From Phoronis australis (lineage: Eukaryota > Animalia > Phoronida): a stretch of DNA of 64,000 nt. Of the stretch, positions 33,551-58,776 are shown one piece after another (within the stretch, counting starts at the first letter, position 1; each line of letters opens with the position of its first letter). Under the pieces are notes generated by a model. That model did not search any database. It had not been told where the DNA came from and saw only the letters and a program-made list of their open reading frames with translations. A program made the translations under genes and the position numbers. The stretch is taken from assembly GCA_002633005.1 (NCBI GenBank), contig NMRA01000595.1:106733-170732 (forward strand), written 5' to 3'.

Positions 33551-33767
33551 CTAGCACTTGTCTGCTCGCTGGGACTAGCTGGGAAGCCAATGAACGTACG
33601 AAAGCCTAGAGCGGATTTAATACCCATCGTGTCACTCGATCGCTGGATAATTACATACCAATCAATGGTTTTTAGAAAAATAAAGAAGCCATATGGGCCC
33701 ATCTGTCGTTGAATTTATTTGCTCATGTTTTTTTACCTAAACATCATTCAACAAAGAATGGACTCAC

Positions 33768-33901
33768 CGGAGACAGCCCAAGAGTTGTTATCTCTGCAGC
33801 GAAGGATGTTAAAGTTGAGTCTCCGATGAGTTGCCAGCAGTCACTGGTACGGCGCGCGGCTTTAGACGCTCTGCGGCTGGGTTAAAGATCTTTTATAGGC
33901 C
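33768..33901 (-). promoter_or_regulatory. TATA box and probable non-coding first exon of the STPG3-like gene
   Basis: The minus strand reads CCTATAAAAG at about 33890-33899, followed by a GC-richer stretch of about 100 nt ending in the consensus donor CCG|GTGAGT at about 33768. Confidence 0.5.
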
Positions 33902-34028
33902 TAACTATCCCCAATTCCCGTACCAGGATGAATTTCAAAAAATAACTTGACTTGGCTGCATCAGATGTGATATGCAACGTTGATGTTGAAATTGCGCCAT
34001 ATTTTTTATGTTGATTTCCTTTGTTGGT

Positions 34029-34180
34029 TCATAATTCATATATTGCAATGTAGGCATCCAGGGGAGGCTTGGATGTACTTATGACTGTAGAGTCGTCAAA
34101 ATTTATCCATTCCCATGCTGACGATTTAACACAGCATGTGTAATGACCACCCGTCGTGTTTCTTCCATGGTGTTCAATGA
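34029..34180 (-). CDS. C-terminal fragment (His-box) of a ubiquitin-specific protease (peptidase C19); remainder lies in the N-gap
   Basis: IEHHGRNTTGGHYTCCVKSSAWEWINFDDSTV...DAYIAIYEL* matches the USP HxGxxxxGGHY / WxxFDDxxV / AYxxxY motifs. Confidence 0.8.
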
Positions 34181-35432
34181 NNNNNNNNNNNNNNNNNNNN
34201 NNNNNNNNNNNNNNNNNNNNNNNNNNNNNNNNNNNNNNNNNNNNNNNNNNNNNNNNNNNNNNNNNNNNNNNNNNNNNNNNNNNNNNNNNNNNNNNNNNNN
34301 NNNNNNNNNNNNNNNNNNNNNNNNNNNNNNNNNNNNNNNNNNNNNNNNNNNNNNNNNNNNNNNNNNNNNNNNNNNNNNNNNNNNNNNNNNNNNNNNNNNN
34401 NNNNNNNNNNNNNNNNNNNNNNNNNNNNNNNNNNNNNNNNNNNNNNNNNNNNNNNNNNNNNNNNNNNNNNNNNNNNNNNNNNNNNNNNNNNNNNNNNNNN
34501 NNNNNNNNNNNNNNNNNNNNNNNNNNNNNNNNNNNNNNNNNNNNNNNNNNNNNNNNNNNNNNNNNNNNNNNNNNNNNNNNNNNNNNNNNNNNNNNNNNNN
34601 NNNNNNNNNNNNNNNNNNNNNNNNNNNNNNNNNNNNNNNNNNNNNNNNNNNNNNNNNNNNNNNNNNNNNNNNNNNNNNNNNNNNNNNNNNNNNNNNNNNN
34701 NNNNNNNNNNNNNNNNNNNNNNNNNNNNNNNNNNNNNNNNNNNNNNNNNNNNNNNNNNNNNNNNNNNNNNNNNNNNNNNNNNNNNNNNNNNNNNNNNNNN
34801 NNNNNNNNNNNNNNNNNNNNNNNNNNNNNNNNNNNNNNNNNNNNNNNNNNNNNNNNNNNNNNNNNNNNNNNNNNNNNNNNNNNNNNNNNNNNNNNNNNNN
34901 NNNNNNNNNNNNNNNNNNNNNNNNNNNNNNNNNNNNNNNNNNNNNNNNNNNNNNNNNNNNNNNNNNNNNNNNNNNNNNNNNNNNNNNNNNNNNNNNNNNN
35001 NNNNNNNNNNNNNNNNNNNNNNNNNNNNNNNNNNNNNNNNNNNNNNNNNNNNNNNNNNNNNNNNNNNNNNNNNNNNNNNNNNNNNNNNNNNNNNNNNNNN
35101 NNNNNNNNNNNNNNNNNNNNNNNTCGATTAGAATTCATGAAAAAGGGACGTGCAGTACTAAGCGATAAAAAGCAAAAGTAGAAATATAAAAGCTACGAAC
35201 ATAGGGTGTCTCAAATTAGACGGAACTCATTAACACTGGAACAAATGCCCACACACGAACCCGTGTTATTTAACCCGTGTTTTCAGTTATATACATTCTG
35301 TACATAGATTTTGGTAACCGGTCAGGCAGTTCTTTTGCAAGTACCAATTGTTATTTTATGTGCAGTAGGCCTGCTTCAAAATAATGCACCAAATAATATT
35401 GTTATATAAAGCAAACTCTTTACTCTGGTTAC

Positions 35433-36890
35433 CTCTTTTGAGAAAGCACAGTTTCCTAATTGCGAAGGCGGGGGACTTTGTTTCACAAGATCTCAAGGGC
35501 TGTCGATTGACATCGTAGGAACATGGGGAAGGGCCGGTCGGTTCAATTTTATAATTAAAAAACTCGGATCACCCGGATTGTAGGGCCTGAAGTACGCCCT
35601 CCAGCGAGCGGGTAGGGCCCTGGGCTTCCACGAATTACTCTTTACGGACGCGTGGGATGATTTCCTGAAATGGGATTTTCATATCCTTGCGTGCATCCTA
35701 CATGTATCTAAAGCCCGGCTTGTCGGGAGATATTGTATCGCATCCCGCCGCGGAGAACACAACATATCTATACGCCCACTTGCATGTAGATGACAAATGA
35801 AATCTAAAATCTCGTATATTTTGAAACCATGACACCCAACGTCTGATTATAACCTGGACTGTGACTGCATTCCGAACACGAAGTAACGAACTCGTTATAA
35901 TCGGACCGTCACACACCCTCGGCCATAGCTCGTGGGAGAACAAAAATATTTCGTTTTAAGACAAATGATCCGATAACTTTAATATATGTCAAAAAGAGGA
36001 TAATGTACCGATAAATTCCAAACTTTGAAGAGCCCGTTGCTGTTAGCAATCACACTGTTATCTTAGCGTAACTTTTTTGACGCGGCTCAAAAATAAGATG
36101 CGGCCGCCAAAGAAGTGAAACTGCCCCAAACCGGTCACGATGAATAACAAGATGTTATGAATGGTGTTTCCAGCTCAATTTCATATTGTAGACATGAGGT
36201 TCAGTAGTCGAATTAAATACAGAACGTTTTGTTTTTATGTTGTATGTACAACATAGTCTTTCGAAGAGGACTTGTATACATACCATGAGACGTAGTCAAC
36301 CACGTCGAAAGCGTAGGTCTAATTCAGCATAACGATCTAGGTTGTCACTTGTCAGTACTGATTCATTCTTGTGATCGTTGTGAGTAACCGCTGTAGGTGT
36401 TTGAGGACGCTACTTGTATGGAATAGTTGGATCAAGTAATGCAAACGTGAACTTACTTTTTATCAGGCATGATTCCCAAAATGCTGATGACGTCACAAAC
36501 TGAAAAGCCGTACGTCTCAGTGACGTAAGTTTCTTCAGTGCCGTATTACGTCGCCGTGCAAAATGCAACCCCACGGTTTTCGTAAGCACAAAGGCTCCTT
36601 AGTCAAAGTCGTGTAGATCGAAACCGTGTCCCAAATCATAGCTACCGGATATAGGGAGATCGATACAATGAGAACTGTTGAGACCGAGGAGTGCAGCGGG
36701 AATTGTTGTCACCGAAAGGAGCGGCTCTAGTGTGACGACTGAGGGGTACAAAGTATTTTGACGGGTGGTTGTGTGGCCACAGTGTGGGGAGGGGCAGGAT
36801 TTGTGAGGGCAGCGACAGGGCAGGGCCCGGACTTTTGACAGCTGAGGGGCCCCTAGAAACCGGTACAACAGCGTTTCCACAAACGTCCAT
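35433..36890 (-). pseudogene. Partial second copy of the STPG3-like gene (first two coding exons) with a +2 frameshift
   Basis: About 35130-37082 duplicates about 31770-33730. The exon copy 35664-35433 is 232 nt versus 230 nt in copy 1 (ttttataattaaaaaactcgg versus ttttatactttaaactcgg). It lacks the TATA/first exon. May be an uncollapsed haplotype. Confidence 0.6.
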
Positions 36891-37082
36891 CTAGCACTTG
36901 TCTGCTCGCTGGGACTAGCTGCCGGGGAAGCCAATGAACGAATGAAAGCCTAGAGCGGATTTAATACCCATCGTGTCACTCGATCGCTGGATAATTACAT
37001 ACCAGCGACCAATCAATGGTTTTTAGAAAAATAAAGAAGCCATAGGGGCCCATCTGTCGTTGAATTTATTTTGCTCATGTTT

Positions 37083-37390
37083 TGAATATATAAGCTTCTC
37101 CAAAACAAAATATTCATAAATTTCTTTTTAAGTATAAACGAGGGCAATTTTTCTTAAACGCATGTTGTGCATGTGTAATTTTGCCTGAAAAATCGAAACA
37201 TTTTTTCATCTTTTCCAAAAATATATTCTTAAAAGTTAAATTTAACGGTATTCCTGTTTTATCTAAAATCCAACTTCGAAAGGAATTCCAAAAGGACTGC
37301 ACTTGCAATCAAAACAGATGGATTAAAACCTATGGGTCCCTTTTCAAAAAGGACACAAATTTGAAGACAAGATGACAATATTACAAAGGA
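37083..37390 (-). mobile_element. L1/Tx1-type LINE C-terminal (zinc-knuckle region) relic
   Basis: Frameshifted NLCPF..LIHLF..VQSFWNSFRSWI..IPLNLTFKNIF. It begins exactly where duplicate copy 2 stops matching copy 1. Confidence 0.55.
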
Positions 37391-39719: not shown

Positions 39720-40904
39720 AAACAAGAACAATTCTCAAGAAACAACATGAACACCAATTGTAAGATAATCACTTAGTACTAAAAACTTCGAGAAACAAGA
39801 TGCATCCAGGGGTGAACTTGCAACAGGTTGATAATCTTTCCAACAAATTTGTCAGTCAACTCCTGGTGGAGTCACTGAGGTCACGACCTGCTCAGGATAC
39901 CTGTTAATAGATTCCTGTAGTCTTCTCATCTCAGCTAGGTGGAGCCGCTCTTGCTCAATTATGATATGCTCCCTGAGTTCCTGTGGGATACAACAGCATT
40001 AAATCGTGTACAAAAACAAAGTTTTCATCCGGCTAAAGAAATTTGTCTATCACAGCTCATCTCAATAAGATTATCACACTTACTTAAAAGTTCCACAGCA
40101 GTCACAAAACAGTTTCAACAACATTTGAAAATTATTATTAAAATCTCTTGGTCTATTTACACCGACCTCTAGTCTATATACACTGTCACGACGTTTCGGT
40201 TGGTCTCTTCTTCGGCCATCGTCAGGTGTTCCCGCATTCTTAGAAGAACGAGCACGGATACATGGTACACTCATGGTGTGATTTTTGTGCTTCGACCGAA
40301 ACATCGTGACANAAACAAGAACAATTCTCAAGAAACAACATGAACACCAATTGTAAGATAATCACTTAGTACTAAAAACTTCAAGAAACAAGATGCATCC
40401 AGGGGTGAACTTGCAACAGGTTGATAATCTTTTCAACGAATTTGTCAGTCAACTCCTGGTGGAGTCACTGAGGTCACGACCTGCTCAGGATACCTGTTAA
40501 TAGATTCCTGTAGTCTTTTCATCTCAGCTAGGTGGAGCCGCTCTTGCTCAATTATGATATGCTCCCTAAGTTCCTGTGGGATACAACAGCATTAAATCGT
40601 GTACAAAAACAAAGTTTTCATCCGGCTAAAGAAATTTGTCTATCACAGCTCATCTCAATAAGATTATCACAATTACTTAAAAGTTCCACAGCAGTCACAA
40701 AACAGTTTCAACAACATTTGAAAATTATTATTAAAATCTCTTGGTCTATTTACACCGACCTCTAGTCTATATACACTGTCACGACGTTTCGGTTGGTCTC
40801 TTCTTCGGCCATCGTCAGGTGTTCCCGCATTCTTAGAAGAACGAGCACGGATACATGGTACACTCATGGTGTGATTTTTGTGCTTCGACCGAAACATCGT
40901 GACA
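39720..40904. repeat. About 592-bp direct duplication (39720-40311 / 40313-40904) split by a single N; duplicates the last exon of the Tudor-SLFN gene
   Basis: Constant offset of 593 with a few SNPs. The second terminal-exon copy is at 39980-39852. Probably a contig-overlap artefact. Confidence 0.85.
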
Positions 40905-43900
40905 TTGTATATAGACTAGAGGTCTGTGTAAATAGATCAAGAGAGTTTAATAATAGTTGTAATACGCCACCACCTCAGAGCGGTTTTAGGAAGTCAACAC
41001 TTGAAAAGTACAGTTATCAAGCATTCACCTTACTTTGGTCATTACCTGACCCAAGACCACACAATAAATTGCAAAAGATTGACAAATTTCACCAAAACTT
41101 ATCTAGCTTAATCAAGCTTATATCAAATATTGTGAAACAAATAACGATTTAAATAATATGAGAATTAGCCTAAAATACTTTGAAAAAATTGCTGATCTTT
41201 GCACAAGATGCTTGCCATTTTTTAGGAAAAAATATTTTAAGGAAAGCTACACTGTAACAGTTACTGTATTTCTACCATCCTATTCGTTTTTAACTGTTGA
41301 TTAAAATTATAACTGAGAAGTGTCCATTAATATCAAACTGTATTTCCTTCGGCAGGGTATATACATTATGTACTAGACAACTGAAGCTTTATATCAACCT
41401 GAGTAGAGACTTGTCTTGTATTGGCCCCAAAGCGGCAGTAACAAGCGCCATCTGCAGCCGTGTACACTTTGTTGTAGTTCTCGCTAATCTTGACCTCTAT
41501 GACGTAACGGTCTGGCACGTACTCCCGGGTCGTGGGGTCAGCGTGACCTCGCTTATATACGACGGGCGAGTAGGTGATATCATACATAGTGTGCATGACA
41601 GGGGGGATAAATCTGGTGATGGGAAAGATGTTTTAGTCAAACAACAATATTCCATTCAGTATCATCAGAAGTTGATGCTGTGAGATAGTCATTCTTCATT
41701 ACAGCAGATGTAGTTTCAACTAGTCATAAAAAATAAAAAAATTGCTTAGTTAGTCAAATAAAGTTTAGTTGGCAGTCATGTCAGGAGCAAACACATATCA
41801 AAATCCCACTAAACTGTCGCTGATCAAAACTGTGAAAGAAGAAAGTTAATAATGTTGATTTTTGGTTGGAATTATTCTGTTTTAACCTGACTTATGTTAA
41901 TGAGGTGGGTAATTAGGTCATTCAAGGTGACAAGTAAACACCACTCTCATTGGTTAATGTCTGGCAAACTCAGATGTTCAGTAACTTGTCCACCTCAGAC
42001 AAAACTCACTCTCTACAGCAGGATACAGTCCGGACCTACAGACAAGACCACCAAACTGGCTCTTCATTGGATGGTACAGTCACAACCAGCAGACCACACC
42101 CCAAACCCACCTGTACAGAGCCCATGCCCAGACAAACCTCACTCTTTACAGCAGGCTACAATCCCGATCCACAGACCAGACCATGAAACTCACTCTTCAC
42201 TGCAGGGTACAGCCAGGGCTTCATCCAGGATTTCAAACATAGGGTGTTCAAAATGGGTTCCCAATATTCCAGGGCGTCCATGATTCCAACGACGCATTAC
42301 CCCCCCCCTCCCCACCACCATTCACCAGTAACCCCCCTAAACACACAGTGAGTTTTAATTTAAATTAAAAAATGCGTTGAACAAGGCTTTTACACCTAAG
42401 TTTACAAAAACAGCTCCCTTGTATTGGGCTTTTTTAAGTACTAAAAAAATTGTTGATAAAGACTTTTATGTTTAAATTTACGAAAACAGCCAAAAAGCTT
42501 ACCAAACAGGTATTACAGATATTACAGATATTGGTTGAACAATGAGTGCACTGTTTTTGGTCATCTCAAGTCAAATTCTGTTATAAAGTTTATTATATCA
42601 ACTTCACTAGCTTTATATGCTGTACAATGAGTCATCAAAGCTGCAGTTACCAACAAAAGAAAAATGCACAGATGATGTGTGGTTTATATTTTGGCAACAG
42701 GTGTCACTGCTGCTCCATTTTAGACGCACATACAAAAGCATGAAACGGGCGAAAACTTAAACATTTTAAATGGGGATATTCTTGCGGCACATCATATTAT
42801 TAAAATAATGACATTTATTTCGCTTTTGGTGTGTTCAAAAAAAGATGAAGTAGATGAAACTACAGCTCTGAAACACCAGTTTGGAGTTGAGCAAGGTCCG
42901 TGTCCCTATATAAAGTACAGAATTGCAGTGGCACATAAGTCTACTGAAAGCAGACACTCTGGCAACCAAACACCTGCTAATGATTGACAGATCTACCAAA
43001 TACTTTGAAAATAGTTTGAACATTGCAACATTTGAAATACATTGTATATTTCTTTCTGAGTTGAAAGGGCCAACTTCTCTCTTTGATTAACTGAGAGTCT
43101 TAGTAATCTTACAATTCGGGTGTCCAAACTGAAGAAATTCTGATTGACAGGGCGTCCAAATGATACATTGGGCGTCCTTGCCAGAGTGTCCACATTAGTG
43201 CTAGGACGTACGCTGCATGAAGGCCTGGGTACTGCCCCAACCAGCAGACCACACCCCCAAACAAACCTGTACAGTGTCCATGCCCAGATGAAACTCACTC
43301 TCTACAGCAGGGTACTTTACAGACTTGCAGACCACTCCACCAAACCCACCTGACAAACTCACTCTCTACAGCAGTGTACACTACCGACATGCAGACCACA
43401 CCTCCAAACTCACCTGTACAGTGTCCATGTCCAGACAAAGCTCACTGTCTACAGCAGGATACAGTACCGACAAGCAGACCATACCACCAAACTCACCTGT
43501 TCAACAACCTGTCCACCCCTAGACGGAACTCATCTCTAGTGTTCCTGTCCACCAAGATGCCCTGCACCACATTCTGCTCGTCCATGCCAAAGTAGATGCT
43601 TCCACCTTTCCCTAATAAATGACACAAGGAGGTCATGTTTCATGACTATGTATGACAAGGCAAGGGAAAACAAAAATTGTTTAAAAGCATGATTGTATAA
43701 TTAGGCCAAAAAAGCACATTTTTACTAATTGCTTATACAGATTTCCAAACACATTAATTTGGTGTTTCATTACCTTTTATAAAAAAATGAGAAAGTAAAA
43801 TTTTTCTTGTCCCAAAAATTCTGCAGAAAATTGGTGTAGAAAATTTTTCATAGTATAAGGTAAAAATAAGATAATCTGTGCAAGTAATTAATTTTAATTC

Positions 43901-46900
43901 ACAGCAAAGAGATCTGGATATACCAAAGAACTGCGCACAGTAAATTTTGCATTTTGCAAAAAACCTAGATCAAGTAAATCACGCAATTGAAAGGAGATTG
44001 TTTTGTGAGTATGCTCAGGACTTTCCTAGCGTATCCTAGCAAATGGCTGAAACTGAAGTGATTGGTTGGTGTGGTTGGGATGAGGAATTGTGGGATAAAA
44101 TTGACTGTTTCTGTTCCACAAGCGAGTCTTTCTAGCTGTAAGGCTTAGCAACTGTCTTGTATCAACAAAACACAGAACTTAGTAATTAATATGTTTCCTC
44201 AGGTATACTCCAAAAACACAAATAATGGAAGGGCCACAGGTGCCAACAAAGGCACAGCAAATTAATATTTAAGCTGTGGTCGAACTCCTTACCACTGTTG
44301 AGGAAGCTGACTACAATTCTTGATAATGTACGGCTGGAGATATGAGTAGCGTCTTTTGTTGGTCGAAGCTCGTGAGAGGAGTCATTCTTCACTTTGACTG
44401 GAAGCCCTGGAACCAAAAGAGACGGTAAAAGTAGTAAATTAATAAAAGCATTGAAGTGACAAATCTGACTGAAGCTTGACACATGATGGACTTGGGGATC
44501 TGTTTAATGAAAAGTGACTTATGATTTAGGGCACAGCCCTTCCTGCATAATTAGATCTCATTTATTTAGAAAAAGTACCGTCACTGAGAGTATACTAAAA
44601 CTGCTATAATTTTATAAATTATTTTTAAGCTGTAATGCGCTAATAATTACATGTCCAAACTTTTATTCAGAATCTGCCACGTGTGAAATGTAAGACCAAA
44701 ATTCTGCCACAAAAATTTAAGCCATTTTTCACAAAACAGACACCTCAGAGAAGCAAAATTTAAAATTAGTCGATCGATCAATGAAGGTTTGCTATAAATG
44801 GGAACACAATGGCCCTGTTCACGGACGCATTGCGGAAATTAAGTTACACCGAACGGAACAATAGGCCTCTTCAATTGTAGGGAAATATGTAAAAAGTCTA
44901 CAAGAACACATCAAAATTCATGACAATCTTTTGACAAACAATTACCAGGTGGCGCTGCACTTACAAGGTAACAATGAACTTAAGTAACTAGCCTAACACG
45001 CTAATTCAAGATTTTTTTACAGGCCTGACTTTTCTTACTGAACAGCTGTCTTTTTCAAGCTATTGCTAACCATTGGTTTAAAAGGGAACATGGAAATTCA
45101 AGCTGGAGAAAACTATTGAATAAAGGGAACTTAATAGCTCAGAAACCATTGTACACACAGCTGAGCAATACAAACATGCAAATATGGTAAAAATTCTGCA
45201 AGATCACATTAAAATACACTGCAATCTTTCAACAAAGAATTAGAAGGTGGCGCTGCATTTACGAGGTGACATGCCACAAATATTGACCAAGCTTGGTCAA
45301 GAACAGGATGTTGTACATCGACAGCATGTCTGTGATAGTTGACGTCATGGTAACAAACAGCTAGGTTAAGAACAATTAGGGTAAACCAACACCGAGATCC
45401 AATCTTGGTTAGTACCTTGTATAAAGAAGACAGTCTCTGTTTTCTCTTTATAATGTCTGGCTGCATCCACCAACACAGTGTTGTTTACACTCTTTCCTGC
45501 AGTTGTAAAATGACATGAAATAGTTTTAAAACACATCAAAGACAAATTGACAATACCTTCTAAATAACACTACACACCAAATATTTGGCTAAAAATGTAC
45601 ACTAAGTCTTGTAAATGAGGTCCTATGTAACATTATGTGACAATCTGGTATAAAACTGAACTCGTTAAGTCCTCCTCCAATGATAAAAGCCAACGATAAA
45701 ATATGCTTTGGTGAGGGTCATTAGCGTACAAAGTTCTGCATTTTTGTAACTACTAAAGCATTAGGAAAATTTCCAGCATTTTTCGTCTGAATTCTGTGCA
45801 AACACCGGCCCATCAACCTCTAGAATATTGTTTGGTGGCATACTCGAGCAATTGAAACAAAACTCTAAATTTGAAAATGAAAGACATTTCGTTTGTGTAA
45901 ATCTACATCAACTCAGCCCATATTGGGAGGGTATAAACCAGACTATGCCAACAGCTGGCCTTTGGAGATTGTGGCGATTGTTTTCTTCAGCATCGCGACT
46001 ACGCCACGAGTATTAATTTGTGAATCGATTAGGACGGATTAGTCACAGTCTGACTTAGGCGTTGAGCTAACACAACTCCAAATGTTAGTGTAGGAGTTGT
46101 CTCACGACTGACTGAAAGGATATGACTGATTGTGAGGTCTTGCTTTTCTCGCAAGAAGCTAGGTCTTAAGTACACTGTCCAGTAAGAGCCCCAACAGCCA
46201 TACCTTTTCTCTTGATGATGGTTTCACCTTCTGAGTCTCCTGATAAATATTGTCCCCGAGACAAAATGGTGTCCTCGTCCGAACTACTGTCACTCTGTAA
46301 AACATGGCAATGTAGTGGGCCAAAGACAGTGATGTCACATGACCTGCCCTCAAGCCTGTTGTGAACTAATCATAGGGAGGAAGTGATAGCTCTGACAAAT
46401 TTACATTGTCTGCCACAGCATTTGAATATGACACTTGCAAGGGCACTTATCTAGTGCAAGTACTGTGTATTCGACGCCCACATTAAGACATCTTTCATTC
46501 CAACTAATAAAGAACTTATCAAAGGCTTTTCCAGAATCAATGAAGTGCTTTGAGTGGACGAGATAATGTTTGTGAGACACAGGAGCTTGCTGCCTAGGAT
46601 CGATTTCATCAAAGTCACTTAGGACTCCAAACAGAAATTTGGTCTCACGCTCCCACAGCCAGGCTCAACAAGTTGACTTGGACAAGGTCTCAAGATATAA
46701 CAAAGTGCTTGTTGGCTTGGACAAGGTCTCAAGATATAACAAAGTGCTTGTTAGCTTGGACAAGGTCTCAAGATATAACAAAGTGCTTGTTGGCTTGGAC
46801 AAGGTCTCAAGATATAACAAAGTGCTTGTTGGCTTGGACAAGGTCTCAAGATATAACAAAGTGCTTGTTGGCTTGGACAAGGTCTCAAGATATAACAAAG

Positions 46901-49900
46901 TGCTTGTTGGCTTGGACAAGGTCTCAAGATATAACAAAGTGCTTGTTGGCTTGGACAAGGTCTCAAGATATAACAAAGTGCTTGTTGGCTTGGACAAGGT
47001 CTCAAGATATAACAAAGTGCTTGTTGGCTTGGACAAGGTCTCAAGATATAACAAAGTGCTTGTTATTCCCAATAACAGAAATCCTTTCAAATCTGAGTAA
47101 GAAACATGTAAATACCAATTTTACAAAAAATCAGTGGCTTAAATAGCAAGCAATTTTTTTCCACAGGCCGGATTATAGGATATCCAATATTCACCAATTA
47201 CCGAATTTGCCGAAATAACTGCTCATGCCCCTATAAGCGCCCCCCACACGTTTTCAGACTTTGCTAAAATAAACGCCCAGTCCATGAACGTGTACATGCA
47301 AAAAATGCCTTACCTACAGTCCTAAAATTCTACAGTAACGTCTTCAATTTATCAATAATATCTGACAGTCCTGAAAAAAATCATTGTGCGCAAAATTGTA
47401 GACCACGAGCCTCGCTGCTATGTCGGTATTTAGTCATGACTATACACTTCAAACTTCCGCCATGCCTCAAAACGAACACAAAAGTTCTGCTGATCTTGCG
47501 AGGACTAATGGCCTGGCCTTTCAGAGCAGAAGTAGTGTACTTGTCTATGGGATTGCTTTGTAGATATTTCCCGCTTTCAACAGGAATCCAAATTTCTTTG
47601 TACAAGTGAAAACCGCCAATTGAAGACTAATAAAAAGCTTGACCAGTGTTAAAAGCACGTGGCCAGGAAGCTACATAGTACATGAACCTGTCATCAAAGA
47701 CATTAGTCGGGAACTATCCATTCATGAAATGGGTAGCATAGCATCGACAAGAAATTAATATTGGCACTCATTTCTGACAGTTTCTAATACTAACTATAAA
47801 AATGTTTGCGTTATTTTTAAGATGAATTGTTTGATTAACCATAATTGGTGTTTTTAAGCCAAATATCCGATAAAATGACCACTGACAGTGAATGCTTACG
47901 CACCCTTACACCGAAAAATAACTGTCAGATAGTCAGTAGTCCCGTACGCATCCAGCCACACAGCGACTAATATGGGCCTTAACGAGACAAATGTCGAACG
48001 TTTTTAGCACGAGACCAGCAAGTGCTGAACGAAACACGCTCTGGTTTAGGCCTACTGCTTGTGCAATTTCTTTAGATGCAATGCACATCTAGCTCGTTAG
48101 ATAGCGTGGCTCTGGCCAAAAGACGGTCTTTGCTCTGGCAAATGAGCTCTGGTGACACGCAAGCGCTGGCTTACTCACAAACGCAGACGAACTTCAAAAC
48201 AAACGTCACGTGACAACAGCATGTGTATTCGTCCAGACATTTTTCTCATGTTGCCGATTATACATGTAGATGGCACGATGTAGCACAGATTTGTACTTAA
48301 GCCTGCTGTGATCCCGACTCCACGGGAACTTAAAAATCTTAAGGACGCTACTTGGAAAACTTAAGGAGGATTTCAGGTAATTTGATTGAGACGAAACTGT
48401 ATTTTTATTCAAGCATTCAAGTCGCAATTGCGAGGCAGCACAATTTTCTGTAAAAAGATCGTAATTTAGCAGCAAAGTTTGACAGCAATGCACCACGGTT
48501 TTGTAGAAAGTCTTTCATAGATTACAGATAACTCACACAGCATAAATATGATGAATCTTAGCTTCCAATTTCACCCGTTTCGGAGACCAGGTTTCAACGG
48601 CCTTGGGTTATAATAAGCACCCCCCCTGAAACAAACTTTTCTAAGCACCCTGGGTGGTTATTACAGCGAATACAGTAATCAACTGCATTATAAATTTGGT
48701 CCTATGATTGGACCATTCGGCCATCTGCACTTCACCAAAAACAATAACTATAAGTTACAATTAAAGAGAAATTCTACGATGAACAACCAACCTGAGTTTG
48801 CCTGCTACGTGAAACAGACCTCTGACCTCCGACCCTAGGTGCACTCGCTGACCTCCCCCGTCTGGAAGGAGGACTTGTGTCCGGATCACTGACGTATTGG
48901 CGTGCACTACGTCGTCTGCCACGTCGATGTCTGCTTGCCACATCGGGTCTCATGGAACTACTTTCAACTTTCGTGGCTGCCAAGGGTTTGGAACCAGCAG
49001 ACTGGGGCACAGGACTACGAAAGGAAAAAAGCTCATACTGACCTTTGATAGTTTACAGGGCAGCCACTATTCCTCCCTCGCACACCACAAGGACATTCTC
49101 ATCAACAGTGTTCTGTTGTCACGAACACAATTCTGACAATATCAGCTGTAGTATGCGTCGTGCTCACGCATCTCTTTTCTTATAATCCACCATTTTTTGT
49201 GGATAACTACTTGAAAGAAAAACATTACATTGCTGATGAAAACCACGCAATCACCCTAGTTGCTGAAAGTAACCAATTAAATTGACAAGCTATTGACATC
49301 ATTCCCAGACACAGGATTAGGAAAATCTAGGGATTCACACTTGCTGACATGCCAACTAATGTCCAGCAGGTAGACTGAGACAATGGCATTAAGCAGAGCA
49401 AGTTTCTCTCAAATTTGTCGAGAACACTAGCACCTAAAATGGCAGCCACTTACAGATTGGTAGGTGAGAATGCAATGCTGAATTGCAGGATAGAATTCGT
49501 AGACAGTAAAAAAGTGCTATTGTATCATTATACCACGCCCCCCCCTCAAACAGAAGACACACCTGGCCTTCGTACATATTTATACTACGCCCAATGCGGT
49601 TAGTCTCCATTCACCTGAGGTGTGAACATACGTGATTGGCCCAAATTTTCACATTTGACGGCTGATGGGACGCCTTACGAACATGTTTTAAGTGCCTGGT
49701 CTCCCCTCTTATCAGACATTCAATCTAGCTTCTCATAAAAGCAAGGGATAATATTTCATAGGTAAAAATTACCAATCCCCATTAGTATTCTATCAATTAT
49801 TTTTAACAACCAAACAAACTAAAACAGTTGCAAACTAATATAAACATTCAACTCACTCAATGATCTTACCATACCTATTTACATCGTCTCCCTTGAGCAG

Positions 49901-52900
49901 CATGTCAACAGACAATTTCATTTGACCGACAAAGATTCTCAGTGTCTTTATGGCTGCAGGGCGGATGAAGTTAGTGTCTTTTCTGGCCACCAGGTGCAAC
50001 AGAAGTTCCAAACCTAAAATTGAATAATGATGAAAATAGAATCCGTCAAAGACTGGTAAATTACAATAGATACGGACTGATGACCAGTAAATTACAATAG
50101 ACATGGATTGATGCCTGGTAAATTACAATAGATATGGACTGATGACCGGTAAATTACAATAGATACGGACTGATGTCAGTGCAAGAACACATTAATTATT
50201 GATATGCACTTGGGTTCTTCATTCAGTCGTCCAGTTATTATTTACAGTCATATTATGCTACAATTTTCTACGTTTCCAGGATATAATTTCAATTTTCACA
50301 ACCTGACTTTCCTAGTGCAAAACATGGAGACTCCAACTATTGTTGCCAAGTACAATTAAATGCAAGAGCCTGTAACATGAACCATAACTTGAAATAACTT
50401 GAAATTTTCTGGATCAGTTTTACTCTAAGACTTGCATTTTCCACCCATTCCATGTATGGAGGCTATCTTTGTAATTTGCGGGTCATCTTTGTAATTTGTG
50501 GGTCATCTTTGTAATTTGTGGGTCATCTTTGTAATTTGTGGGTCATCTTTGTAATTTGTGGGTCATCTTTGTAATTTGTGGGTCATCTTTGTAATTTGCG
50601 GGTCATCTTTGGTTTGCAGGATGAGTGTCTAAACATGTACTGTTGGGGAATGTTTTTGACAGGCAAGATAGCATTGGATAATGTTGTCCGTCCCAAACAG
50701 CTACATTGCATAAAACATCAATCAAACATAGACTTGTGGTTTGCTCAGCAATTCTCACTACGACATTGCATCATGACTGTAGACTGTGTGGTCCTCACAG
50801 AGTATTTATTGTATGTTAACACTACTCCCCCTAAAGTCTGCTGAATAGATTAATAGCAGACCAGCCACAACTACACAGATAATTCTTTAAAGATGTATCT
50901 GCATGGTCATATAATGTATAGCAGGAACTAAACAACAATGCTATTTGAACACCATCTACGCTCAACAAAGTGCAGTTGAAATCAGTTACAACTTGACAAT
51001 GTGAATTAACCAGAAAAATCTTCATATAGGTGACCTTCAAACTAATGATAAACCTTGGGGATTCACATTACCCACACCATGCAATGTTATTCCCCAATAC
51101 CAGGTCACCATACTTGCAGGAAACGGTTAAGGGATTTACGGCGGAAAATTTCTGACATAAAACTCATTCTTCAATACATTTGGCAATTTTCAACCAACAT
51201 AATATTCACATCATCGCTATAGGTTGCATTTGTAATGCTTTTGTCTAAGCAGTCACAGAGATAAGAAATTTGCATGCAAATTCCACTTTAAATTTGTCAT
51301 AAAAATAATTCATTTCAACAAAAAAAGGAAACTCTACAACAAGTCAACAAACAGGTATCTGGTATGAAATGAAATTGTCCACATTTTAATTTTGGAGTTT
51401 TATGTTGACTGAATGAAAAATAATCATAATATGTGAAACTCATACTGTACCCCTGAGGTCAGCAAACAACTGTTTGTTGTCTGCGCAGTTGAACATAAGA
51501 TTGGTGAGGGCGTTCAGACCCACTTTGACCACTCGTGACATGGCAGTGGTCAGCGACAGCACACACTTCTGACAACAAGCTGTAGAGAGAAGGCAGTCTT
51601 CAATAAGCTATATACCATGTAATGGAAAAACTCACCAATGCAATCCAGTTTCACAAAAACATTGACAAAAAGATAAAAATCCATTATGCAGTGAAAGTGT
51701 ACCCAGAATACACAGCTTTACGATTTTTAGTTTAGTGGCAGAACAAAAACACAGTCTGTACCTTACGTGTGACACTTTGTTTATTGGACTGCACAATAAA
51801 TGTGCAAAATCTTACACTTTTGAAAGCAGGTGACTGGAAAGTTTCCTTTTTTGAAAACTCATGAATCATAAGCAGAAATGTGTATGATATGGTACAATCT
51901 CATCAATTTTGGACAAAAAAAACAAAAAACAATTAACCTCAATTCCAAAGTCTTCTAAAATTGCTGTGAAAGTCCACAATTTTCAAAATATTGTCAGATA
52001 GAGAGTATAGTACAGACCCTCAACATGTAAAAGTATTACGTCATTGCTGTGCATCTTTCATGAATAAAACAAAAAATAGAATACGAGTCCGCTACATTTG
52101 ATTCTAAATTGGTAAGGTTATAGATATTTTTCTGCATTGAAAGTATTCATAATTCAGTTTAATTTAATAAAGTTGTTTAAGTCATGAAACCAGGACATAT
52201 AGAGACATGCTGTTGGGGACACTGAGTACACACTTTCGGGAGACAAGAAGTTTTTTATCGCTGGTAAAATTTTAGCCTCTTTATCGTTTTTTTCCTAGTT
52301 AACGTCGTTCATCAGACAAAAAATATGTTATTGTAGCATGCATACAAACTTTTGCAGAAATACAACAGAATTATTATGCAAGCAAATACAACAGAATTAT
52401 TATGCAAGCAAATACAACAGAATTATTATGCAAGGAAATACAACAGAATTATTATGCAAGCAAATACAACAGAATTATTATGCAAACAAATACAACAGAA
52501 TTATTATGCAAACAAATACAATAGAATTATTATGCAAGCAAATACAACAAGATTATTATGCAAACAAATACAACAGAATTATTATGCAAGCACAAAACAT
52601 TGTGAAAAGGTGTTGAAAGTGAGTAGTACTATAATTATGATTGTACACAGTAGGGCTAAACCAATAACTTAACTTACAACACGGTTCTAGAGATTTTACA
52701 AAAACTAATCTTGCATTCCCATCATAATGAAAACTCCGGTCTACCAACGATCCACGCAACTCCACCTCCCTTTCCATTCACTGGTGACATCAGAGTTACC
52801 ATTAGTTCTCTGGATTTAACACCAGATGGCGCATTTCAATCATAGAGGAAGATTAACGGAATTGAGATTAATGAACATGTCCTGCCATTTATGATGAGTA

Positions 52901-55900
52901 AAGCCAGACTGATCAGTGTTCTTTGTTGTCAGTTTTCTGTTCTCTTAATCCTTTATGAGCGGGAATGACATTAGTGATTGATATCGCGACCTCTGACCAA
53001 AGTGGTGTTAACATTTCCCACTTAAATTCACATATTTTGAGTGGAGCTGCGTTCGCTATTTAAGGTCGAGAGTTACGCTTCCCATAAAGCTAAACTCGGT
53101 AAAACAGGTGAGTACCGGTGCTGGTGGGAAAGTGGCACTAAGTACACAGGCCATATTTAGATAAAGGACTAAACTCACTGAAATAAACAATTTGTCTTAC
53201 TTAAAATTTTCTTGACACCCCCTATTTGACCGAGATTCAACCGTATCCTAGGCGATCGTGCAGCATTGGCAATGATGGATATAGCTAACTCTGCCACCTT
53301 TGGAGAAGATGGGTTAACAAGACTGAAGAAGACCGCAGCTGTTTCCTTAGAGTACATGACTCCCTCTGAAACCAAATCAGCCACATTACTGCAAGCATAA
53401 ATAATGCTTAGGCACACAGGGGGCGCTGTAACTGTACTCAGTTGGGTTTATACACAGATTAAATTCAGAAACTTAAATAAATAAACAGCAGGCAGGTATG
53501 GGTAATGTACTATGCAAATGACAGATTTGAGGAAATGCACTTATAAGCAAGCATGTACTTAAAATGCAAGAGTTTAAGTGAAAGCAAATATAAGATATAA
53601 TATACCTATACCAATATTACAAAATCATCAAGAAGGTCCTTAAAAGGGTGTAAAAAGTGCGTGTCATTACAACTCAAGTACATACACAAAAAACAATGTA
53701 GATGGAACAAACTTAGAAAAACAAAAATGAACAACTTTGTACTCTTCGTCAGCTTTGGAAGGAAAGACTGACACAGCGCAACTGTTGGAATACGGATGTT
53801 TTTTTCAAGATTGCATGGTCTCCTAATCTTTTTCTTAATTAGAGTTAAAACAACAGCATGTTTGTGTTGTTAGATTGAACATTAATACATGCTAATTATA
53901 GTTTTGTAATACTTGACAGAAAAACAGCATTTTAAAATTGTACAATGATAGTGTATATATTGTATACTGAAGACTAGCTTCCTTAAACCACCTTCAGGTG
54001 GTGATGGAGTAACATTGTATCTTTTCTAAAATCTCTTGGTCCAATTCAGACTAACTTCTAGCCTATTTACATTCTGTTGGCATTATGTTTTAGTTCATCA
54101 TTCATCCAGCCACTTTCATGGGTAAAAGAATTTTAGAAGTACAAGCGCGGGTTTTTAATAATCTTGTGGGGTCAATGATGATCACTTTCAGTGAATAAGG
54201 AACTTTGTCGGTCAAGCATTTTCGTCACTAGACCACTGAATCATCCGGTAGTTGTCAGTTGAGCACTCTCATCACTAGACCACTGAGTCATCAGGTAGTT
54301 GTCAGTTGAGCACTCTCATCACTAGACCACTGAATCATCAGGTAATTTAGGAATTTAATAAGTTTATCTTGTAATGTAAGACTGAAGACTTGTTCACATC
54401 ATTCATCGAACACAGAGACATACCAGCAGCAGTGACGTCCTGGCACACGGTACAGATGGTCTTCAAGATGGCCACCAACATGTCTTCACTGACCGGCGGT
54501 GGAATGGCATCTGAAGCAATGAGAAATGTCATGTTATAATATCAATATCAATATCAATATCATCTATTGTACATCGTGGGCATTGCCTACGAATACATAA
54601 ATTCAAAAGAACATGTTCTAAGTATTTACACAGAGCAGTTCCTGTCTTTAAGCCATAGCCCTCTGAATATACAATGCAAGGCTCTGGATACTGTCATGAT
54701 TCTTATGTTGGAATAACCTAACAAGAGAAGAGTTAACATTCATAAGCTTTGGTGGATTTTTCTAAGGTCTCCAAGAACAGGACATCGACACATGAAATGA
54801 GGCTCATCTTCCATTTCATCACGATTGCTCGATTGCTTATGCCGCATTTTCTCTCACTTCCAGGAATACCCATATGTCTACCTTTCTCTGCATTAAGTGA
54901 GTGACCTGAACATCAAACTGTGAAATCATTCTTCTCGAATAAGCAATTAAACAATTCACATATTGCTTGCTAACTACATGTCATTTAAGAAGACTATTAA
55001 ATTCATATTGATCTGAACTACCTCTTTCCAGTTGCCATTCTTGTACTCCACAATCTAGTGAACCTCTCCTTGAAAGCCATAATAAATTCAACAAACACTA
55101 CCTGGGCCAAATAACCACACCTTTCCATATTACCTGAGCCAAATAACCACACCTTTCCATATTACCTGGGCCAAATAACCACACCTTTCCATAACCGTAC
55201 CAACACAAAATTTCTTTGACAGGGTGTGCCCAGTTACAATTACCGTTTTCACCCTGTTCCCTAAGCATACTATAGCACTTCAGTGGGAACCTAATTATGT
55301 TCTTCCATATCATGTAATATTGTCCAAAAGATAATTGGTTTACACATTATATTTTGTAATTAACAATCGTCACATTCACCAGCAGCCACCACATACTCAA
55401 TCTGAGAAAAATATTTTTACAAGAATCACTATTAACTTCTTTGATTCACATATTGACGTGCCCAATATTTTTACACCATATCTTAGTATGGGCATTATCA
55501 CGGAGCCAAAAAGTTTAAAGTGCACTGTATGGGAAGTACAGTTCATTGCCTTTCGAGCTTGGCAAGCAAGTATTCTACAACACTCTGTTCTTTTAAGTCT
55601 GCAGAATGTGACTCCTAGGTACTCGTAGTCGTACCATTTGGTACATGTATCTATTTCCTTGTGGCAAAAAAAAACACCTTTCAGTATTTGAAAGTATGCC
55701 CCCTCGCTTAAATACTACAACATTTGTTTTCTACCAATTAATTTGCAAGTTCCAATCTCAACAAAACTTTTCGAGGACAATGAGCTTCACCTGTAGCCCA
55801 GCAACAGTATTCAAAACCAGAAGTGGACATCAAATAAAAATGTAACCTTGGGTTAAGGAGATTTACCTGGTTTTCATTTTAAAAGAAAATATAAAAGCAT

Positions 55901-57026
55901 ATTACTGAAGAACAAAAATGGACTAAAAGATTTCAGGAGCATCAATCAAATGGGGGTTGTCAGTGATGGATGTGAATATATTGGTTACACAATTTCATAG
56001 GGTATATATTTAAGCACATATTAATAAAGCATAAAAATATTTCCAGGTGATCAGTGCAATGGGTCCACATGTGAGGCCTGCGCATGTCTGGTACAACGTG
56101 TATCAGACCGCCTGCAATTATTTTATATTTTATATTGTTCGGAGGGAAACTTTTAAAAAAAGAGTGACGTCACAAAATGCATTGTTACCTTTAACAGAAC
56201 AGAAAGTGACTTGAGGGACGATACTCTTCAGTTTTTCAGGTAGCTCATATATATCCTGAGCAGAAACTTGAAATTTCCGCCCATAGTCAACGGCCAAAAC
56301 AGTGAAAGTGTGGTCTCCTCCACCAACTACCATGCAACGAACAAACTCTGATTGGCCACTGAGAGTGACGCTGCAGCAGACGAGCTGTCCAGTCACTGGA
56401 CTGGAAGAAAGTTTTCTCCGTTCATTTTCAGAAGTCAACTCTGATCGGACAAATTCGACTTGCTGAAACATTTTCTCCCCAATGTGGGCGAAAAAGTTTA
56501 AATTTGGTAAAACGTGCACCACTTCTACACTGTCCCACACAGAGGAGGATATGTCACTGTCAACAGTCCATATTGAGCCAGCTTCGACTAGTTCATCTCT
56601 CACAGTCACATCTGTTTCAGGGTTTGTTGTGTCAAACAGTTCCACCTGGTAGCACGTGATGACACTGCAGTACTTAACTGCCAGGGACCCGTTCAAATGT
56701 AACTCCTCGTGCAAATGCATTTTTAAGTTTGTTTTTGTGACATCTGACTGCTTAAACAAGTTCGCGACTAGTCTTTTGTCACGCGACAACTCCAACACCT
56801 TGTCGACGGCAGTACTTCGATAACAGAAGAAGGTACTGTTTTTGATTTCACACATACTAATGAGGCGACTAATGGCATCTGATTGGACAATCTGTTTACA
56901 ACATGAGGGGTCAGAGTTCATGAGGTTAAGAACAAGACCAGACACCTTACTGACAAGCTCAATGTTTCCAGAAAAACTGGACTTTATTGATGCAAGAGCA
57001 TTCTCGGCTGACTTGAGGACATCCAT
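40445..57026 (-). CDS. Tudor-ARM-Schlafen (AlbA_2) multidomain protein, 12 coding exons, about 774 aa
   Basis: Phase-consistent exons 57026-56189, 54510-54424, 53365-53201, 51579-51451, 50013-49875, 49014-48792, 46294-46204, 45496-45416, 44406-44293, 43611-43497, 41612-41399 and 40573-40445 (TGA) total 2325 nt. eTudor: VEVVHV..GQLVCC..FVRCMV..VLAVDYG..DIYELPEKLKSIVPQVTFCSVKG. ARM: AISIIANAARSPRIRLNLGQIGGVKKIL, ALTNLMFNCADNKQLFADLRGLELLL. SLFN: HELR..VVSFLNSGKGGSIYFGMDEQNVVQGI..RDEFRLGVD..FIPPV..YVIEVKI..GACYCRFGANTRQVSTQEL. Confidence 0.85.
40725..40955. mobile_element. About 230-bp inverted-repeat element (arms about 65 bp) with a hammerhead-like core, Penelope-terminus-like
   Basis: ttattattaaaatctcttggtctatttacacc...cacgacgtttcggt pairs with accgaaacatcgtg...gtgtaaatagatcaagagagtttaataata. 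Minus strand reads CAC-CTGACGA-T-GG..CC-GAAA-CG-TC-GTG. A degenerate relative lies at about 54028-54160. Confidence 0.6.
41990..43497. repeat. Degenerate minisatellite (aaactcactctctacagcagg...cagaccacacc units) split by the hAT insertion
   Basis: Related units at about 41990-42213 and 43228-43497, abutting the donor of exon 43611-43497. Confidence 0.7.
42214..43227. mobile_element. Non-autonomous hAT element, about 1.0 kb, inserted in a minisatellite
   Basis: TIRs CAGGGCTTCATCCAG / (rc) CAGGCCTTCATGCAG; 8-bp TSD ggtacagc / ggtactgc; subterminal GGGYGTCCA repeats at both ends. Confidence 0.8.
46677..47064. repeat. 33-bp minisatellite, about 12 near-perfect copies
   Basis: Unit cttggacaaggtctcaagatataacaaagtgcttgttgg-type; no spacers. 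Confidence 0.95.
47201..48675 (-). mobile_element. Non-autonomous Tc1/mariner-pogo-type element, about 1.5 kb, carrying a decayed HIRAN-domain ORF
   Basis: TA-flanked TIRs ta|ccgaatttgccgaaataactgctca and (rc) ta|ctgtattcgctgtaataaccaccca; subterminal ATAAGCRCCCC repeats. Internal minus-strand peptide GGFHLYKEIWIP..NPIDKY..PRKISR..LRHGGSLKCIV..GLQ at about 47381-47620. Confidence 0.7.
50051..50174. repeat. 31-bp minisatellite, 4 copies
   Basis: Unit gactggtaaattacaatagatacggactgat. Confidence 0.85.
50466..50611. repeat. 20-bp minisatellite, about 7 copies
   Basis: Unit atctttgtaatttgtgggtc. Confidence 0.95.
52358..52591. repeat. 26-bp minisatellite, about 9 copies
   Basis: Unit aaatacaacagaattattatgcaagc. 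Confidence 0.95.
54225..54345. repeat. About 47-bp tandem repeat, about 2.5 copies
   Basis: Unit tcactagaccactgaatcatcaggtagttgtcagttgagcactctca. Confidence 0.85.
54541..55846 (-). mobile_element. 5'-truncated, decayed non-LTR retrotransposon (CR1/L2-group-like RT 3' half)
   Basis: Minus-strand relics YEYLGVTF, LKLFGSVIMPILRYG and RFPLKCYSML..GNCNWAHPVKEILCWYGYGKVW; (ATCAAT)n tail at 54541-54562. Confidence 0.7.
56189..56530 (-). other. Extended Tudor domain coding segment
   Basis: The DYG motif, the LP..L..I.PQ...C.V.G motif and the N-terminal V.V.HV...FF strands are typical of Tudor-SN-type extended Tudor domains. Confidence 0.85.
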
Positions 57027-57734
57027 TCTGTAAAAATAAGAATTAGGAATACAGTTGTGAGAGAATCGTCAACAGAGTACCTCGTGTTTTCTATGTATCC
57101 ATTCAGGTAAATTTGACCTCAACTTGACACCTCAGCCAGGATTGNNNNNNNNNNNNNNNNNNNNNNNNNNNNNNNNNNNNNNNNNNNNNNNNNNNNNNNN
57201 NNNNNNNNNNNNNNNNNNNNNNNNNNNNNNNNNNNNNNNNNNNNNNNNNNNNNNNNNNNNNNNNNNNNNNNNNNNNNNNNNNNNNNNNNNNNNNNNNNNN
57301 NNNNNNNNNNNNNNNNNNNNNNNNNNNNNNNNNNNNNNNNNNNNNNNNNNNNNNNNNNNNNNNNNNNNNNNGAACTTTATTTTTTATCTAAGGCAAGTTT
57401 ACATTGCTAGAACATCGCTAGGTTTATACAAACGAAGTAGAAAATAACATCCAACCAATGCTCATGCCAGTGCCTTTTCAAGCTATAGCATGATTGTGAT
57501 TTAAGTTAGTTATATTTTTGAAACAAGATCACGCAAACTCCTTTGGCAGAAAAACATGTCTTTTTCTTGAAAAGTCGTGGTTTGCAACTTTTGTACTCAA
57601 TAGTAATTATGCAAAGATGGTTACCACTGACCATAGACCAGGTAGTATCACACCTGATGTACTCCGATCATGGTATATTACTTAACCCCCTTATACTATA
57701 CATGCGCATTTATCATTGTACATAAACCCACCTA

Positions 57735-58656: not shown

Positions 58657-58704
58657 ACTACTACTGCTGCTGCTTCTGCTGCTGCTGCTGCTGTTGCTGC
58701 TGCA

Positions 58705-58735
<31 letters not shown>

Positions 58736-58776
58736 CCTGCTGCTGCTACTGCTGCTGTTGCTCAGCGGCTGCTACT
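58657..58776. repeat. Interrupted (CTG)n microsatellite
   Basis: About 40 triplets of ctg/cta/ttg. Confidence 0.95.

Follow-up and report, generated by a model that had tools for sequence, protein, structure and literature searches.

A minus-strand gene of Phoronis australis encodes armadillo (ARM) repeats, a single extended Tudor unit and a single Schlafen domain on one chain, and it belongs to an ancient family of animal ARM-Tudor-Schlafen proteins that extends from cnidarians to molluscs. The gene lies in a stretch of 64,000 nucleotides (GenBank assembly GCA_002633005.1, contig NMRA01000595.1, positions 106,733 to 170,732), referred to here as the window and numbered from its first letter. 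As far as could be seen, the architecture is real, ancient and undescribed: we found no description of it, and no named gene carrying it, in the literature searched (few subscription papers were covered), as a first-pass annotation made from the sequence alone had supposed. The domains are already on record automatically, because UniRef labels members of the family “Schlafen AlbA-2 domain-containing” or “Tudor domain-containing,” and the family is unstudied in the same literature. That annotation had also placed Tudor, ARM and a single Schlafen domain on one chain, and this is borne out by Pfam, by the family profile, by RNA joints and by full-length orthologues.

The gene comprises 12 exons between an ATG at 57026 and a stop at 40445, every intron is GT-AG, and the translated exon chain is a frame of 774 amino acids (aa) with a single terminal stop, matching the 12 phase-consistent exons and approximately 774 aa annotated before. 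Three stranded RNA runs labeled as the same species (X1, X2, and X3; 18 to 19 in 100 of each run were read) were mapped onto positions 40330-46660 and 48650-57140 of the window. They support 11 of 11 introns, ten by joint reads (Table 1) and one, the intron between exons 6 and 7, which is inside neither stretch, by loose read ends: 10 reads of X1 stop at 48792, and their loose letters equal 46265-46294, the start of exon 7. This link is the most important of all the joints, because read-through of the exon 6 donor leads to a stop after six codons. In all joint reads the first mate is on the plus strand, which fits minus-strand RNA in most stranded libraries. Short reads show links between adjacent exons and not a whole single molecule, but instead of separate Tudor and Schlafen transcripts, the outcome that would have told against the annotated chain, they connect exons 1 to 12 pairwise. 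A contig run (X4) had zero exon joints. An exon-3 acceptor at 53425, which would give 794 aa, was ruled out by joint reads that place the acceptor at 53365.

A HMMER search with exon 1 against 1.84 billion representative proteins gave 102 matches. We selected by eye 31 of them in which the alignment extends into the region before the Tudor, and treated the remaining 71 as multi-Tudor proteins, which is what the six that were checked all proved to be. SLFN_AlbA_2 was found in all 13 selected matches of at least 610 aa, accompanied by TUDOR in 11 of them (E 0.01) and by ARM-type matches in most. The other 18, all shorter, are without Schlafen, a point that, like the stop met by reading through exon 6, could indicate that two adjoining genes were fused in the gene model. 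Such an artefact is hardly credible, and the idea is largely refuted: ten reads tie exon 6 to exon 7, full-length models exist in 14 named species, and the short records are fragments, 13 of the 15 checked ending at the position where exon 1 ends. Two short matches share their clusters with full-length proteins that contain Tudor, ARM and Schlafen (P0109 of Nematostella and P0112 of Lingula). Those 13 records break at the end of exon 1 (56189), which coincides with the C-terminal border of the inserted Tudor, and this suggests a conserved intron.

Full-length orthologues are 743 to 940 aa long, with ARM, Tudor and, in every case, one Schlafen Pfam stretch, and all of them are unnamed or called “uncharacterized” or “hypothetical.” Members with a name (30 of the 31 were looked up) come from Acropora, Nematostella, Actinostola (partial), Owenia, Tubulanus, Lingula, Liolophura, Haliotis, Patella, Solemya, Mytilus, Ylistrum, Sinanodonta, Mercenaria, and Mya, spanning Cnidaria, Mollusca and one genus each of Annelida, Nemertea and Brachiopoda. 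The Tudor-Schlafen fusion outside nematodes that had been proposed is conserved; no nematode, arthropod or vertebrate is among the named matches, and the exon-1 search is too narrow to imply loss there. Identity to the Phoronis protein is 21 to 28% overall, and Schlafen is the best-conserved domain, with 32 to 46% against 13 to 28% elsewhere (14 rows). In a quick tree of 16 rows, the two cnidarians group together (100), as do the nine molluscs (100), with Phoronis outside the molluscs; the cnidarian and mollusc groupings match the expectation of vertical descent. Word-index protein searches gave nothing for exon 1 or exon 11, and the family alignment retrieved only P0092; these blanks are weak, because the HMMER search recovers the family. 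Exon 1 had no usable match in the ESM Atlas, and searches of the PDB by single exons found nothing significant. The Liolophura orthologue P0062 carries an extra helical linker segment at approximately 660-710 that looks UBA-like by eye and has no Pfam match at E 0.01.

The extended Tudor described in the first-pass annotation is present, but its circular permutation and the loss of its cage had been missed, and what was described as a helical N terminus consists of an ARM repeat together with the Tudor half that has been displaced. Within exon 1, Pfam detects TUDOR at aa 167-277 (E 4.9e-9). We made a canonical extended-Tudor profile from 120 of 224 units of the multi-Tudor matches; its first ca. 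122 positions match the family strongly, and its last part matches weakly and ahead of the Tudor. Compared with the canonical C-half, the family segment ahead of the Tudor (aa 62-156 in Phoronis) gave an HHalign probability of 95% (E 4e-8, score 37.8, versus at most 9.2 in 30 column shuffles), while the segment after the Tudor gave 0.4%. Conversely, 11 of 15 matches of the upstream-segment profile in multi-Tudor proteins begin -30 to +40 residues from the end of the Tudor core. In place of the canonical order, in which the nuclease-like C-half follows the Tudor barrel, the C-half precedes it, and the profiles indicate an extended Tudor that is circularly permuted, the order of its halves being swapped. 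This reading rests on profile comparison and on the secondary structure of a model, because ARM chains took up the results of the fold searches made with the full model. In an AlphaFold2 model of the orthologue P0092 (14-row alignment, mean predicted local distance difference test [pLDDT] 74.6, predicted template modeling score [pTM] 0.56), the displaced C-half is confidently folded as helix-strand-strand-helix, with a low-confidence loop to the Tudor N-half; the two would pack as one domain.

Aligned to Drosophila Tudor, the family has Ala where a cage aromatic precedes xDYG and is without the Asn after it. The cage aromatic and the Asn are each present in 0 of 16 family rows, against 114 and 110 of the 116 canonical units, out of 120, that contain the motif; the assignment of these positions to the cage agrees with the canonical-unit counts. 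With the cage lost, the reading of methylated Piwi tails is unlikely. In the exon-1 search, the nearest relatives of the Tudor half are multi-Tudor proteins, some of which also carry MYND, and its closest PDB matches are Drosophila Tudor, TDRKH and SND1.

On both sides of the Tudor, the P0092 model has tandem three-helix repeats in one solenoid. Residues 43-541 superpose on the ARM chain 4rzp with 239 of 242 residues aligned (Z 24.6, root mean square deviation [rmsd] 2.8) and on 7r0r with 236 of 239 (Z 22.9, rmsd 2.1). The ARM blocks either side of the Tudor are accordingly predicted to form one continuous solenoid with the Tudor looped out between two helices of a single repeat, and our reading of the sequences would put it between the second and third helix. 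We did not come across an extended Tudor with this permutation lodged in an armadillo repeat in the literature searched; the arrangement hints at a way in which units excised from tandem Tudor arrays can be put to new use. Exons 6 and 7 hold the Arg/Ser-rich and acidic linker noted before, disordered in the orthologue model (pLDDT below 50 over 120 residues), and the charged tail, likewise noted, is a helix in the models.

The Schlafen domain had been assigned to three small exons and actually occupies exons 8 to 12. Pfam matches in Phoronis are weak but collinear in exons 10 and 11 (that of ARM_ARMC5 in exon 3 is below the family cut-off), and the orthologues exceed the Pfam cut-off for SLFN_AlbA_2. 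The spliced Phoronis protein scores 215 bits against a profile built from the Schlafen domains of 14 orthologues, the family profile matches the N-domain of SLFN11 with an E value of 9e-7, and the Schlafen model of orthologue P0056 (pLDDT 83.7) has Foldseek probabilities of 1.00 to SLFN12, SLFN5, SLFN11, and SAMD9 (E 4e-6 to 1e-4). The catalytic motif is another matter. PESQSIEFK of SLFN11 aligns without gaps to ENDETHELR of the family, in Phoronis N592-x4-E597-x-R599, plus D633. None of the 16 rows has the complete Ex4[ED]xK: its first position holds E in two rows, D in four, and N, H, T or Q in 10; the second acidic position is E or D in all 16; and the Lys position is never K and is R in nine. 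In human SLFN11, each of E209A, E214A and K216A abolishes cleavage, and relatives without one of these residues are inactive (PMC9482658); bacterial Schlafens share Ex4(E/D)xK (PMC13056530). Nor is there a C-terminal membrane helix, the top 19-residue hydropathy in the last 78 aa being -0.24 in Phoronis and at most 1.26 across the 16 rows. A homodimer prediction for the P0092 Schlafen domain (678-861, alignment not used) scored 0.03, which is no evidence either way.

The obvious comparison is with the Caenorhabditis elegans enzyme PUCH, which consists of TOFU-1 and TOFU-2 together with SLFL-3/4, needs all three Schlafen subunits, and has in SLFL-3/4 a C-terminal membrane helix for mitochondria (PMC10567574). 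Within it, the subunit TOFU-1 lacks catalytic residues and docks on the extended Tudor of TOFU-6 in PETISCO, which has a degenerate cage and binds TOFU-1 through its nuclease-like surface (PMC10567574). The Phoronis family resembles this system in being a single-Schlafen protein and in having an extended Tudor with a degenerate cage; the TOFU-6 surface that binds TOFU-1 is the counterpart of the half displaced in the family. It differs in carrying Tudor and Schlafen on one chain with an ARM solenoid, in the permutation of the Tudor, and in lacking a membrane helix; Pfam detects no RRM in the orthologues and likewise no cap-binding part or SPRY, and no nematode is among the named matches. Where PUCH uses three different Schlafen subunits, one of them catalytic, here there is one domain per chain with an incomplete motif, so that the family works, at most, like a TOFU-1 fused to a TOFU-6-type Tudor. 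The looser definition of SLFL proteins by a single Schlafen fold (PMC10567574) does fit.

Other Schlafen and Tudor proteins are more distant in architecture. The tRNA nucleases SLFN11/12/13/14 and SAMD9 share the AlbA_2 fold, but the family has just a single lobe, lacks both a helicase and a STAND NTPase, and has an incomplete Ex4ExK. Vertebrate SLFNL1 also has one C-terminal Schlafen fold and is not known to have a Tudor or ARM. The nearest structural cluster to the family in the ESM Atlas is RRM plus Schlafen (TM score 0.84), of which SLFNL1 is presumably a member. This cluster and single-Schlafen clusters of the Atlas that are rich in molluscs (242 and 298 aa) are candidate active partners. 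SLFNL1 is testis-enriched and of unclear function (PMC10567574) and, unlike the family, retains catalytic residues (PMC12492265). Multi-Tudor scaffolds of the nuage (Drosophila Tudor, the TDRD1/6/15 type, TDRKH/PAPI, SND1) have the extended Tudor with its staphylococcal-nuclease-like part, from which the family differs by a single unit with swapped halves, inserted in an ARM repeat and without the cage. A survey of Tudor proteins (Piccinini et al. 2025, PMC12147562) lists 12 never-named orthogroups, four of them in more than two phyla, and the family may be one of these; Schlafen, AlbA, and armadillo go unmentioned in its main text.

We consider that the protein may be a scaffold subunit, without cutting activity of its own, in a Schlafen complex that processes RNA, probably within RNA granules of the germline (rough probability, 0.45). 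The ARM groove and the Tudor surface would bind protein partners without reading methyl-arginine, and the flexible linker would leave the Schlafen domain free to associate with a second single-Schlafen protein that is active. The paired Schlafens would form an RNA-binding groove, like TOFU-1 with TOFU-2, to which this chain would contribute targeting and one inactive half-site. Pairing is proposed because Schlafen nucleases function as dimeric or trimeric assemblies, and in SLFN11 a single active site is enough (PMC9482658, PMC10567574). The germline and PIWI-interacting RNA (piRNA) setting is suggested by domain precedent, namely the Tudor type and PUCH. Several observations weigh against this proposal. 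The loss of the cage takes away the usual link between Tudor and Piwi, and TOFU-6 is not among the best 60 of 140 PDB matches for the Tudor, so that no special kinship is shown. Expression is low, with an exon depth of approximately 3 to 10 (calculated as roughly 2 to 5 reads per kilobase per million mapped reads). The models are of the orthologues P0092 and P0056 and not of the Phoronis protein, with a full-chain pTM of 0.56. Finally, several acids of the Schlafen domain are invariant or nearly so (D593 in 15 of 16 rows; E/D597, D649, and D656 in all 16), and [ED]x4[ED]xR is kept in four rows, those of both cnidarians and of two bivalves.

These acids and the high conservation of the Schlafen domain bring up the possibility of an active single-chain nuclease, a homo-oligomer cutting piRNA-type precursors with a variant site (D593, E597, Arg in place of Lys, and perhaps D649/D656). 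A variant active site is possible judging from the alignment, an AlbA_2 site can employ three to four acidic residues (PMC12680541), and extended Tudor and Schlafen do come together in PUCH-PETISCO (PMC10567574). However, the canonical motif is complete in no row and starts with N, H, T, or Q in most, PUCH requires three different subunits and a membrane helix that is absent here, and it cuts capped precursors of C. elegans while flies and mice use Zucchini (PMC10567574). We regard such a nuclease as distinctly unlikely. The complete PUCH/PETISCO nuclease on a single chain that was initially suggested is not supported, as there is one Schlafen domain, Ex4ExK has lost its first Glu and its Lys, and the C-terminal membrane helix is missing; the permuted Tudor, the lost cage and the incomplete motif all make this version unlikely.

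That both signature sites, the Tudor cage and the Schlafen motif, are degenerate would also suit an RNA-binding scaffold outside the piRNA pathway, for instance one that helps to store or process mRNA in gametes or in cells with cilia, where Schlafen would be an Alba-like RNA binder and ARM and Tudor would be protein docks. The Arg/Ser-rich linker and neighboring genes that resemble axoneme and sperm-tail genes (weak Pfam matches) point the same way, but gene neighborhood is weak evidence in animals, and the Tudor is descended from the multi-Tudor type, which is associated with piRNA biology (PMC12147562); we hold this option to be unlikely. The fold matches to SLFN12, SLFN5, SLFN11 and SAMD9, together with the frequent fusion of sensors to Schlafens in bacteria (PMC13056530), would fit instead a stress or antiviral sensor-effector in which the ARM-Tudor part detects a trigger and sets free a Schlafen that cuts tRNA. 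We find this quite improbable, given the incomplete catalytic motif and the presence of one gene per named species, with a tree near the species tree and no expansion among the matches (clustering hides paralogues more than 50% alike). Going beyond the non-cutting scaffold proposed here, it is conceivable, if improbable, that a Schlafen small-RNA machine predates the cnidarian-bilaterian split, with the family as the subunit that provides targeting; cnidarians, whose proteins keep E-x4-D-x-R, would retain the activity, most bilaterians would be left with a pseudo-nuclease, and the nematode PUCH-PETISCO would be a split, derived form of this Tudor-Schlafen coupling.

That single-Schlafen proteins can make piRNAs has been shown by PUCH, only in C. 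elegans (PMC10567574), and the wider question of Schlafens and piRNAs has been raised for SLFNL1 (PMC12492265). The present family links Schlafen to an extended Tudor from cnidarians to molluscs, and its Nematostella orthologue (LOC5514712 / A7S0C2), in a tractable model, makes the question testable outside C. elegans. An expression lead in PMC9885605 yielded nothing.

Table 1. Features of the ARM-Tudor-Schlafen gene and its surroundings (window positions; joint reads are those to the next exon in X1/X2/X3)
Feature	Position	Strand	Content	Evidence	Joint reads
Acceptor-like tract	57028..57047	-	Pyrimidine tract and CAG just 5' of the ATG	Sequence	
Exon 1, aa 1-279	56189..57026	-	End of N-terminal ARM repeat, aa 1-62; displaced Tudor C-half, aa ~68-153; linker; N-half and Tudor barrel, aa 165-279	Pfam; HHalign; joint 54510/56189	8/5/0
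Displaced C-half	56568..56825	-	Staphylococcal-nuclease-like C-half of extended Tudor	HHalign 95%, E 4e-8	
Tudor core	56196..56528	-	Degenerate cage (Ala245 replaces cage aromatic, Arg250 replaces Asn)	Pfam; alignment	
Exon 2, aa 280-308	54424..54510	-	ARM helix resuming past Tudor insertion	Joints; alignment	7/4/2
Exon 3, aa 309-363	53201..53365	-	ARM repeat	Joint 53365/54424; ARM_ARMC5 E 1e-4	4/0/6
Exon 4, aa 364-406	51451..51579	-	ARM repeat	Joints	0/4/4
Exon 5, aa 407-452	49875..50013	-	Final ARM repeat, linker start	Joints	5/1/0
Exon 6, aa 453-527	48792..49014	-	Arg/Ser-rich linker	Joint 49014/49875; loose end to exon 7; pLDDT <50 across matching part of orthologue P0092 (disordered)	
Exon 7, aa 528-557	46204..46294	-	Acidic Ser-rich linker	Loose end; joint 45495/46203	0/4/4
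Exon 8, aa 558-584	45416..45496	-	Linker end and first Schlafen strand	Joints	4/0/0
Exon 9, aa 585-622	44293..44406	-	Schlafen motif region, N592-D593-x3-E597-x-R599 at 44363-44386	Joints; alignment to SLFN11 and 5yd0	14/4/7
Exon 10, aa 623-660	43497..43611	-	Schlafen GGxIYFG strand, D633, invariant D649 and D656	Joints; Pfam E 0.04	5/0/2
Exon 11, aa 661-732	41399..41612	-	C-terminal Schlafen part	Joints; Pfam E 0.0043	8/0/7
Exon 12, aa 733-774 and stop	40445..40573	-	Charged C-terminal helix without membrane segment	Joint 40572/41398; hydropathy; helix in models	
Second exon 12 copy	39852..39980	-	592-bp duplication, 99%, 39720-40311 / 40313-40904	Beside single N	

The Phoronis frame probably lacks a 5' exon, because the ATG is one base past an acceptor-like TTTTTACAG (a pyrimidine tract ending in CAG) and because in the alignment the orthologues carry about 50 to 100 extra N-terminal residues, an ARM repeat. 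A profile and tblastn search found no upstream coding exon within the window, which has an N gap at 57145-57371, upstream of the ATG, and no RNA joint is listed at the acceptor-like tract (three loose ends were not displayed). A CTG/CAG triplet run is also located upstream of the gene, at 58664-58773.

The neighbors had been labeled AXDND1 and STPG3-like. Weak Pfam matches agree with these labels as far as they go: the left-hand multi-exon gene (approximately 500-19600, minus strand) has Ax_dynein_light in two adjacent exons (E 0.006 and 0.01), which fits AXDND1, and the region at approximately 28500-35600, minus strand, has SHIPPO-rpt (sperm-tail PG-rich) in four exons (E 0.01 to 0.09). The Pfam matches behind both labels are sub-threshold. 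Two near-tandem duplications affect these neighbors, one (16796-17922 / 18129-19254, 95%) copying an exon of the left-hand gene and another (31770-33731 / 35128-37083, 93%) a SHIPPO-repeat exon. Together with the one that copies exon 12 they make three, each flanking an N gap, and are likely allelic assembly overlaps. Inside the introns of the ARM-Tudor-Schlafen gene, the stretches 40726-41000, 42238-43297, 46134-46166, and 56009-56124 collect numerous reads, mostly from both strands, that have loose ends and many mismatches, and are copies of repeats transcribed elsewhere. A 71-nt inverted repeat (40723-40793 / 40888-40958) and four intronic minisatellites were also found, at 46672-47064 (39 x 10), 52358-52592 (26 x 9), 50465-50611 (20 x 7), and 50051-50175 (31 x 4). 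Finally, a 413-bp imperfect palindrome at 28996-29408, 81% identical to its own reverse complement, is possibly a small inverted-repeat transposon.

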